Shown in pieces: positions 44,330 to 46,557 of a stretch of DNA of 64,000 nt. The DNA lies in NCBI GenBank assembly GCA_964016885.1, contig OZ024743.1, positions 344,162,001 through 344,226,000 on the forward strand, in the 5' to 3' direction. The translations under genes were made by a program, and so were the position numbers. This stretch comes from Eledone cirrhosa (lineage: Eukaryota). A model generated the notes under the pieces. The model did not search any database. It was not told the DNA's origin and worked only from the letters and a program-made list of their open reading frames with translations. The first letter of the stretch is position 1; every line of letters starts with the position of its first letter.

Positions 44330-45700
44330 ACAGATTTTGGCCAAGGTGCTATCAACGATGTTGGCGCTTGTTGTCAAGAATCTGGTAGAGGAGGCGCAAA
44401 TGTGTGCAATCCTGACCACGTCCATACACAACAACCTCCTCCTCATGCGATACAACACAGAGAGGGTAGAGAGTGAACCTGGCATCGGTGGGCCTCTGAT
44501 AAATTTGGATCAATCAAAATCTTTTGTTAGGATCGGCCATCGATATCTGGACGCTGTCCTCAAGGCAACCGACTTCGGTCCCATCATCAGAGGCTGGATC
44601 GCTGCAATGCACAGCGGCATCTGTTCGGTGGTCTAACTAAATAGGCACCTATCGGAACCGTTCCAGGTCATGCACTCAGTCCATCAATGGTGCCGTCTCT
44701 TCACGCCTCTGTACGTACTGACTCTCGAGCCATTAATACAGAAGCTGGAGTTATTGCAGGGCAACCTGCTCGAACCGGAATATGGAAGGGTTGCGTCGGC
44801 ATATGCGTGTATAACATCTGGAATATTGCCATGCGTTCACAGCCCTGTATCAGTCATGCAATGAGGTCAGTGGAAATTCCACTTTAGTGTTCTATAGAGG
44901 ACTAGTGGTGGGCATGAGTGATGGCGTTCTCAGCGAAACTCTAGGCGTATTGAAATCGAACTAATCTGTCTGTTCTGGAGAACGTCCGAGCCGAGTGCTA
45001 TAGACAATGTCCAGAAATCACTAGCTTGACAATATTACTAGGGGGGGGGGGGGGGGCACTGCCGGTTCGATACAAACTCTACAGGCACTGAAGTGCTGTC
45101 AGATGGACTTGTCCAAGATGTGCATGGGCAGAGGGTTGACACCATTCTGTACTCACTCGCCCAGTGTCCGAGCACTGCTGATTTGCGGAATTTTGTTGAA
45201 GAGCTATTATTGATTGTAGGACGGATCCGGCTATCGACTGACTCCACCGTGAAGATTGCCCTGCCAGTTTCTTTTAACTTGGAAGGGCAGATAATTTTCC
45301 TCTGACTGGTGGCTGTAGCGAAGGAGGTCGTGTGGTGGACGCGACTGAAAAGAATGAAGACACACACGTTCTGCTTCAGCCAATCTTTCATCAACTTTTT
45401 CAAGTTCCCCTTGTCGTGAAGATACCCGAGTGAATGGGCCTACTCTGAATATGCGCCTGTAGGCTAGAGAATGTAGAGAGAAGAGGAGCGCCTACGGGAC
45501 TCTTTGAGATTAGAGTGGTTTTGAATCTGTGGGGCTCGTAAGATACTCCTTGATGGTACTCCCTCTTATTAGGGAATTTTTTGTTATTAATTTATTGTTA
45601 ATTGTTTCCTGTGATTTTTTTAAACATATTTTATATAAATCCCCACTGTCCCTGTTTTTGTGTCGTTTGTTATGTTTCGGCCCTAGTGGCCAATAAAGAA
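44330..45700 (+). mobile_element. Old, internally deleted Tx1-B-type LINE
   Basis: AKVL, SIHNNLLLMRY, LINLDQSKSF, LYVLTLEP, LAQCPS.ADL fragments; ends GCCCTAGTGGCCAATAAAGAA(ATA)n. Confidence 0.85.
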
Positions 45701-45711
45701 ATAATAATAAT

Positions 45712-46557
45712 AATTGTTTCTACTTTTGGCACAAAGCCAGCAATTAGCCCAGTGCATGACTGGAGCTTTATTTTGTCGATATCCCTCCCTAAGTATGAAA
45801 GGCAAAGCTAACATCGGTGGGATTTGAACTCAGAACGTAAAGGGCCATAACTCTATACTACAAAGCATGGTGCCTGAGGCTTATGATTATGATGATGATG
45901 ATGATAATGGGGAGTTATCATCCTATATTGATATGATTTTCATTAGGAAAATAGATAGAAATGATTGTTTCTACTTTAAGCACAAGGCCAACAATTTGAA
46001 GGGGAGGGGACAGTCGATTAAATCGACCCCAGTGCATTACTGGTACTTTATGTTATCGACCCCGTACGGATGAAAGGTAAAGCTAACCTTGTCGGGTTTG
46101 AACTCAGAACGTCAAGGGCCATAACTCTATGCTACAAAGCATCTTGTCTGACGCTCTACCCATACTGCCAATCCACCGCTGTTAGGAAAGAAATAATAAT
46201 TGTTTATACTTTTGGCACAAGGCCAGCAATTATCCCAGTGTATTACTGGTACTTTATTTTATCGACCCCGTAAGGATGAAAGGCAAAGTTAACCTCGGCG
46301 GGAACTCAGACCATAAAGGGCCGTAACTCTTTGTTGCAAAGCATGGTGTCCGACCCTCTACCGATACTGCCAATCCACAATAATAATAATTGTTTCTACT
46401 TTTGGCACAAGGCCAGCAATTATCCCAGTGTATTACTGGTACTTTATTTTATCGACCTCGTAAGGATGAAAGGCAAAGTTAACCTCGGCGGGATTTGAAC
46501 TTAGAAGGGCAAAGGCCGTAACTCAATGCGTCAAAGTATCTACCGATACTGCCAATT
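45712..46557 (-). mobile_element. Tandem cluster of four SINE family A copies
   Basis: Copies at ~45712-45875, 45962-46178, 46197-46378 and 46388-46557, all in the same orientation. Confidence 0.88.

Follow-up and report, generated by a model that had tools for sequence, protein, structure and literature searches.

To be copied, SINEs depend on enzymes encoded by a partner LINE, in many cases by way of a shared 3' stem-loop (PMC3747384). Stringent pairs (L2, CR1 and RTE; maize and sorghum SINEs with LINE1-1_ZM) resemble the pair considered here in sharing a 3' end with a predicted hairpin whose loop is kept and whose stem shows changes that may be compensatory, but their shared tails extend over approximately 40-100 nt as compared with 24 nt in the present case (PMC3747384). 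Neither a Tx1 nor a cephalopod pair appears in the table of 58 SINE-LINE pairs in the available part of the same article.

The sole Tx1-driven SINE that we found in the accessible portions of the literature is crocodilian SINEU, for which mobilization was concluded from target sharing (Kojima 2015, PMC4494074). As in our case, the probable driver of the SINE is a LINE of the Tx1 clade with a target preference (there Tx1-Mar), tandem insertions sandwich the duplication and some SINE families are less target-strict than the LINE. SINEU differs in possessing U1/U2 heads, poly(A) tails and a Mariner target, and for SINEU-1 no LINE with the same 3' end was found (PMC4494074), whereas the SINE studied here combines a tRNA-type head and a shared 3' hairpin with an ATTAT/(ATT)n target and has no poly(A). 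Tx1-type LINEs in simple repeats, as found here, are also exemplified by Kibi, Koshi and the crocodilian microsatellite-targeting Tx1 elements; however, the targets of these families are (TC)n, (TTC)n, (TTCC)n and (TTTC)n rather than (ATT)n and (ATCT)n, and no SINE passenger is described in the available text (PMC4494074).

UCON3-domain SINEs (Kojima 2020) share with the present family a tRNA-type head followed by a body of about 50 nt. Fig. S2 of that work, in the part consulted, covers chordates, a nematode, a coral and xenacoelomorphs but no mollusc, and the tails are of RTE or CR1 type or unassigned (PMC7245038). MetaSINEs (Nishihara 2016) likewise start with a tRNA-type head, but carry a 66-bp Meta domain directly after it, with 61-86% identity to the consensus (PMC4824008, available sections). 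Tx1 goes unmentioned in the accessible part of a bivalve SINE survey, and the 3' part of squid Sepioth-SINE1 is listed as being of unknown origin in the portion seen of the supplement to PMC5786205. Some 35 nt before its end, Sepioth-SINE1 as given there has a 4-bp stem with a CTTGT loop, the same loop as in the elements described below; in 960 kb of random DNA of our organism, an element of this kind did not appear. In O. vulgaris, SINEs make up 11.6% of the genome, with most recently active families unclassified (PMC13282606, in part). In the literature surveyed, no partner LINE is named for octopus SINEs and no cephalopod SINE-Tx1 pair is described; Repbase and Dfam, the repeat library of O. 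vulgaris, the supplement of SINEBase and papers behind subscriptions may contain the pairing or a family name.

The SINE family and its UCON3-like body

Within the window, i.e. the whole 64-kb stretch of Eledone cirrhosa DNA under study, a profile built from 93 near-full copies detects 26 copies or pieces of the SINE. The same profile gives 214 hits covering 3.3% of the bases in 96 random 10-kb stretches (960 kb), and an exact 31-letter pattern of the tail matches 126,559 times in the 3.0-Gb genome. The elements are short (mostly 170-225 nt), interspersed, high-copy and non-coding, with target duplications at their flanks and 5'-truncation of some copies, which are the traits of a tRNA-derived SINE. 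Two subfamilies can be distinguished among 65 full copies: a long one (10/65, 78-96% identity to its own majority sequence), represented by the plus-strand copy at 53433..53644 (profile hit) that the initial annotation cited, and a short one from which an internal segment is deleted (55/65, 74-98%). By eye, A- and B-box-like motifs are apparent in the head of the majority sequence; ARAGORN and Rfam returned no tRNA match for the head.

Four copies form a head-to-tail array on the minus strand. Three of them (46386-46558, 46196-46379 and 45961-46179, together 45961..46558; profile hits) are stacked at ATTAT sites, and the last, 5'-truncated and degraded, occupies 45715..45881 (profile hit 45881-45710, 152 bits). 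All of its parts lie on the same strand: a B-box-like motif of the tRNA-type head at 45821..45831, identified from the sequence against the box consensus, a UCON3-like body at 45761..45814 (a cleaner one is found at 46437-46485), and the 3' hairpin motif GGC-loop-GCC, with one loop change in this copy, at 45728..45738, 13 nt from the element end, as delimited by alignment and pair counts. Also on the minus strand, a 14-nt direct repeat (45700-45713 and 46182-46195) encloses two SINE copies together with a spacer of 80 nt, a layout that would result had the copies been inserted as one unit or sequentially. Elsewhere in the window, at 52543-52748, three 68-bp tandem units each consist of a SINE tail and its target duplication.

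The body aligns colinearly with the UCON3 domain over 49 nt with one gap. By hand count against the part of Fig. S2 of PMC7245038 that was consulted, identity is about 76-78%, that is 38/49 to the rattlesnake row and 37/49 to the elephant-shark row. Judged by sequence, the family is accordingly classed as a SINE of the UCON3-domain type, with a tRNA-type head and a UCON3-like body of ~50 nt. The initial annotation had proposed a Meta-type core; only a 23-nt piece resembles one bivalve Meta copy (19/23 by hand count), and the UCON3 match is both longer and colinear. MetaSINE identity was rejected after hand comparison with three BivaMeta-SINE1 rows, not the Meta consensus itself, in which the rest of the 66-bp domain proved to be missing. 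Identity with Ceph-SINEs (CORE-like part plus a Ceph domain derived from an RTE 5'-UTR) was likewise rejected, by eye, for want of likeness to the bodies of SepiaSINE, OegopSINE and Sepioth-SINE1. The octopus SINEs of Ohshima and Okada (1994) may include this family.

Tx1-type LINEs and the facing tails at 45.7 kb

The LINEs of the window encode Pfam Exo_endo_phos, RVT_1 and zf-RVT domains in ORF2, and CCHC knuckles are present in both ORF1s examined. Among 21 homologues, the only informatively named one is 'Transposon TX1 uncharacterized 149 kDa protein' (295 bits, 30%); human L1 ORF2p scores 170 bits. On these features the elements likely belong to the Tx1 clade. Four families occur, represented by the following plus-strand copies. 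Family A lies within (ATCT)n repeats at 5945..13171, where one copy is full-length, with ORF1 at 6301-8076 and ORF2 at 8077-11547, and another is truncated. Family B is represented by a 3' fragment at 22959..23425, with its hairpin at 23402-23412 and (ATT)n thereafter (sequence, alignment), and family C by a full-length copy between (ATT)n runs at 27151..32996, with a CCHC ORF1 and an ORF2 whose APE, RT and zf-RVT parts are in pieces. The degraded 3' part at 44332..45703 is 69-74% identical to the full-length copy at 27-33 kb; its hairpin motif, GCC-loop-GGC with one loop change, lies at 45680..45690 and is followed by AATAAAGAAA (alignment, pair counts and folding).

A tree of ORF2 C-terminal pieces was calculated from five outgroups and 19 genome rows, namely the full-length family A copy and 18 rows to which 57 usable copies had been thinned. 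The ATT-associated families B, C and D group together in a single clade (97/94) that excludes the ATCT-associated family A, and the 45.7-kb copy joins family D (92/86) on a long branch. Since the LINEs at 45.7 kb and 23.4 kb furthermore have only ~36 terminal nt in common, we assign the former to the sister family D and not to family B.

These LINEs exhibit a target-sequence preference. The exact B/C-type tail has 10,679 matches in the genome, and 40 loci around such matches on one chromosome served as the junction set. (ATT)n directly precedes 15/15 copies that bear a 5' UTR, two of which may be neighbours of the intended copy. This is the cleanest count, because automatic 5' boundary calls often stop inside elements; with such calls, ATTAT was found in only 23/40 5' flanks, and near the 5' end in 14/32 members of an earlier set into which four SINE rows were mixed. 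In unique flanks (loci L164 and L246), duplications are 15-17 bp long and begin with ATTAT right at the element end. Family A lies in (ATCT)n in 4/8 called 5' flanks; at 5850-13190 of the window it targets (ATCT)n rather than (ATT)n, with the same 3' hairpin retained.

Several further arrangements were noted. At loci L162, L165 and L235, a Tx1 3' end is followed by ATT repeats and then partial SINE bodies, which reflects either insertion into a SINE or later insertions of 5'-truncated SINEs. Two minus-strand Dong/R4-like pieces between 23404 and 27105, 94% identical, lie in ATT runs, one after a Tx1 tail and one after a SINE tail. A stretch inside the Tx1 5' UTR (~27300-27329, also loci L119 and L124) reaches 12-16 bits with the profile of SINE tails. 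SINE copies (74-98% identity to consensus) and Tx1 copies (80-100%, mostly picked by similarity) may overlap in age.

At 45680-45745, the plus-strand Tx1 tail opposes the minus-strand SINE tail across (AAT)5 at 45700..45714, i.e. (ATT)5 on the SINE strand, the target repeat that separates the two. The initial annotation described an imperfect inverted repeat at 45680-45740. The tails do face each other, but do not pair along their length: in the predicted fold only a 9-bp core is paired and each tail forms its own hairpin (DNA, -10.3 kcal/mol, with 5/200 shuffles as good). On this basis a functional inverted repeat was rejected; the arrangement is a chance by-product of SINE insertion on the opposite strand beside an old Tx1 end.

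A common 3' end and a common target

A MAFFT alignment of window tails, eight from SINEs and four from Tx1 elements, extends over 34 columns without a gap, so that the gap in the tail comparison of the initial annotation is not needed. The strings quoted there were located (23402-23431; ~53637, the variant ending AGAAATC-ATTATT), and the resemblance between the SINE tail and the Tx1-B tail is borne out by the shuffling results given below. The common layout consists of stem, CTTGT loop, stem and 13 nt containing AGAAA, followed by the target. In the last 24 nt, SINE and Tx1 ends are identical at 15-18/24 positions, again without a gap; as judged by sequence, the termini thus share 24 nt only, and published shared tails are typically far longer.

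The three inner stem pairs are paired in 35/36 cells of the alignment, the fourth in only 4/12. Two independent double changes are found: at one pair the SINE has G-C where Tx1 has C-G, and at another the Tx1 families differ between G-C and A-U. The predicted hairpin is weak (3-bp stem, CUUGU loop, -2.8 kcal/mol); six single folds gave z values of +0.5 to -2.1, with one SINE variant lacking the hairpin in its best structure. A search of 960 kb of random DNA for the CCTTGTG loop on a Watson-Crick stem of 3 bp gave 95 occurrences, comprising 85 SINE copies (83 labelled, two recognized by eye), eight Tx1 elements and two unrelated sequences, and no second short element with the same hairpin was encountered there. 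A genome-wide search for Tx1 elements with the SINE's own stem plus AATAAA yielded four matches, all of them SINE copies with point changes.

For statistical evaluation, a 24-position profile was derived from 194 SINE tails, with the target ATT excluded and the register picked after seeing the data. Families B, C, D and A score 16.2, 11.3, 14.1 and 19.4 bits, respectively. Only 1-2 of 5001 end-anchored dinucleotide shuffles reach the Tx1 tail scores (p<=4e-4), and among 1.9 million random positions with SINEs masked the fraction that does so is 1.6e-6 to 2.3e-5; the similarity that the initial annotation wished to see compared with shuffled controls is therefore significant. Corrected post hoc for about 350 tests (52 clusters, seven offsets) against genome-wide frequencies, the values are ~0.002 for B and ~0.008 for C.

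The 52 clusters of LINE C-terminal/3' regions, some of them redundant or spurious, represent an incomplete sampling of LINEs, into which three loci from a strict cut-off Exo_endo_phos_2 search were pooled. The clade labels RTE, CR1 and R4/Dong used for them are based on motifs. Among these clusters only Tx1 matches the SINE end terminally. Two of 52 fall at p<0.05 in unanchored comparison. One is the Tx1 cluster of 75 members, in which the match is terminal; the other is an R4-like family, in which it lies ~50 nt away from the end. Four single Tx1 rows score low; the 45.7-kb copy is partly masked by the adjacent SINE, and the others look degraded or interrupted. A better match to another LINE, which the initial annotation had regarded as decisive, was absent from all sampled RTE, CR1 and R4-type termini, but the R4-like family surpasses Tx1 internally (median of the cluster 15.6 bits, best 19.0 bits), which means that chance alone can produce scores of this size among repeats. 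Taken together, the shared 3' signal is real and of modest significance, with a matching insertion footprint behind it.

This footprint is evident from the SINE flanks. After the fixed end of the element, A, T, T, A and T follow in 107, 108, 103, 103 and 95 of 111 copies, and the sequences diverge beyond. Tails for these counts were chosen by a pattern fixing loop and spacing, so that damaged tails are omitted. Duplications scoring >=10 are present in 43/105 copies of the random set as opposed to 21/600 controls with mismatched flanks. In 32 of 87 non-tandem copies they are 10-25 bp long (median 16) and start at the element end, and their 5' copy begins with A, T, T, A and T in 29, 29, 32, 31 and 29 of these 32 cases. 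ATTA[T/C/A] lies within the 5' flank of 76/105 copies compared with 15% of random windows. Both tails had been said to end in (ATT)n; ATT does follow both, but for the SINE it is the start of the target duplication and not part of the tail. The comparison of target repeats that had been proposed turned out positive, SINE and Tx1 duplications both starting with ATTAT and measuring ~16 bp and 15-17 bp, respectively.

The SINE is less strict than the LINE within this agreement. ATTATTATTAT follows 35/40 Tx1 tails but only ~15% of SINE tails, the patterns used not being identical. A Tx1 model has to accommodate this looser use of (ATT)n, either through relaxed targeting or through read-through tails of the LINE. 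Joined to (ATT)n, the SINE tail has 18,749 genome-wide matches (positive control), and joined to (TCTA)n or to (CATA)n it has none in either case. This distribution fits an ATT-clade Tx1 and also a requirement for RNA-target pairing.

Candidate drivers of the SINE

The common 3' end and the same ATTAT sites indicate that Tx1-type LINEs likely supply the copying enzyme of the SINE, and within them the ATT-targeting branch (families B, C and D) is the likely agent of its copying in trans. The proposal in the initial annotation of a Tx1-clade driver agrees with the end match, its significance and the footprint. The choice of Tx1-B is not singled out by these data: B matches, but so do all Tx1 families, with the ATCT family A matching best (18/24) and B, C and D being indistinguishable. 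Since the SINE is never found in the ATCT target (0 at (TCTA)n), family A is not the driver in spite of its best-scoring tail.

In this process, the SINE would be transcribed by Pol III, reading into the flank, and the Tx1 ORF2 protein may bind the predicted CUUGU-loop hairpin of the SINE RNA. The Tx1 APE endonuclease would nick ATT-type DNA, and reverse transcription would be primed there, probably aided by pairing of AUUAU in the RNA with the nicked strand. A second nick ~16 bp away would give rise to the target duplication. Because ATTAT would be duplicated at each insertion, later copies could land beside earlier ones, and arrays would build up.

It is unlikely that another LINE drives the SINE, either a young CR1 ending in (ATT)n or an unsampled low-copy or extinct family, in which case ATTAT would stem from pairing of the RNA end rather than from the endonuclease and the likeness to Tx1 would be due to chance. 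The random sample for LINEs comprises ~1 Mb of 3 Gb, published SINE-LINE pairs are dominated by CR1 and RTE (PMC3747384, available sections), and hagfish UCON3 SINEs bear RTE- or CR1-type tails (PMC7245038, in the part consulted). In random DNA, the recognizable retroelement families ending before ATTAT with varied flanks are the SINE, Tx1 and CR1a. The latter is young (98-99% identity between copies) and ends in (ATT)n, and one copy (L090) has a 48-bp duplication starting with ATTAT. The 3' end of CR1a, however, does not match the SINE profile (median 1.3 bits), and ATTAT is present in only 3/19 of its 5' flanks. CR1a possesses an ATT tail of its own (6-30 nt) and shows duplications in 3/20 bounded copies (8, 35 and 48 bp), unlike the SINE with its duplications of 10-25 bp starting at the element end. 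RTE families end in other repeats, and no RTE cluster exceeds 6.9 bits. An RTE partner acting via a bipartite body was rejected, as the RTE families retrieved by DUF6451 and C-terminal searches have other end sequences; this comparison covered 3' ends. As a separate observation, the CR1 family at loci L081-L110 is very young, retains many intact frames of 945 codons, has its own (ATT)n tail and mostly lacks a target duplication; its tails serve as landing sites for SINE and Tx1 (L147, L245 and L247).

Quite unlikely, in our view, is movement by Tx1 with relaxed recognition, such that any AUUAU-ending RNA able to prime at the nick would be copied and the hairpin likeness would be a leftover or a convergence without function. 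The movement of crocodilian SINEU is attributed to Tx1 without a shared tail (PMC4494074), the stem predicted here is weak, and the SINE does not use the target of the ATCT family although the hairpin is the same. Against this stands the retention of loop, stem pairing and 13-nt spacing in four Tx1 families and both SINE subfamilies despite varying spacer letters. Moreover, of the 194 SINE tails, which were selected by a pattern that fixed loop and spacing, 188 and 184 have G-C or G-U at the two variable pairs of the stem, respectively.

An R4/Dong-type LINE with a restriction-like endonuclease is extremely improbable and already largely refuted by orientation and target: Dong-like elements occupy the same microsatellites as SINE and Tx1, and family R4x attains the top SINE-profile score in its 3' region, but the repeat at the end of Dong-like elements reads (AAT)n on the element strand. 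This is the reverse of the SINE, which is inserted into the repeat on the same strand as Tx1, and the R4x match lies ~50 nt inside the end of a family residing in (CATA)n, where there are 0 SINE tails. A short repeated non-coding element was seen at locus L117 (G000:C2:10000001-10010000) in (CATA)n arrays beside two (CATA)n-ending R4-like LINE families, with which it possibly forms a second SINE-LINE pair.

Returning to the ATT-targeting Tx1 branch as the likely driver, we lean slightly towards a more detailed reading, in which an animal Tx1 lineage would recognize 3' ends stringently by a minimal signal that comprises a stem of 3 bp, a CUUGU loop and a 13-nt ruler to the priming site. A UCON3-domain SINE would have copied this signal and, via a microsatellite-targeting enzyme, spread to short ATTAT sites, some hundreds of thousands in number, so as to occupy ~3% of the genome and create new landing pads for SINE and LINE alike.

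The general model of SINE-LINE dependence is unchanged by such a pairing, and the SINE body would extend the UCON3 domain to a mollusc genome. If the pairing is true, a driver is named for one dominant octopus-type SINE family, and Tx1 joins the clades with a shared-tail SINE. It would also provide a very short, mutable signal (11-nt hairpin, 13-nt spacer) for studying how Tx1 ORF2 picks its RNA, and the same signal would allow the question to be asked whether the endonuclease or RNA-DNA pairing sets the target. Family A and the ATT families constitute a natural pair for the study of a target switch.
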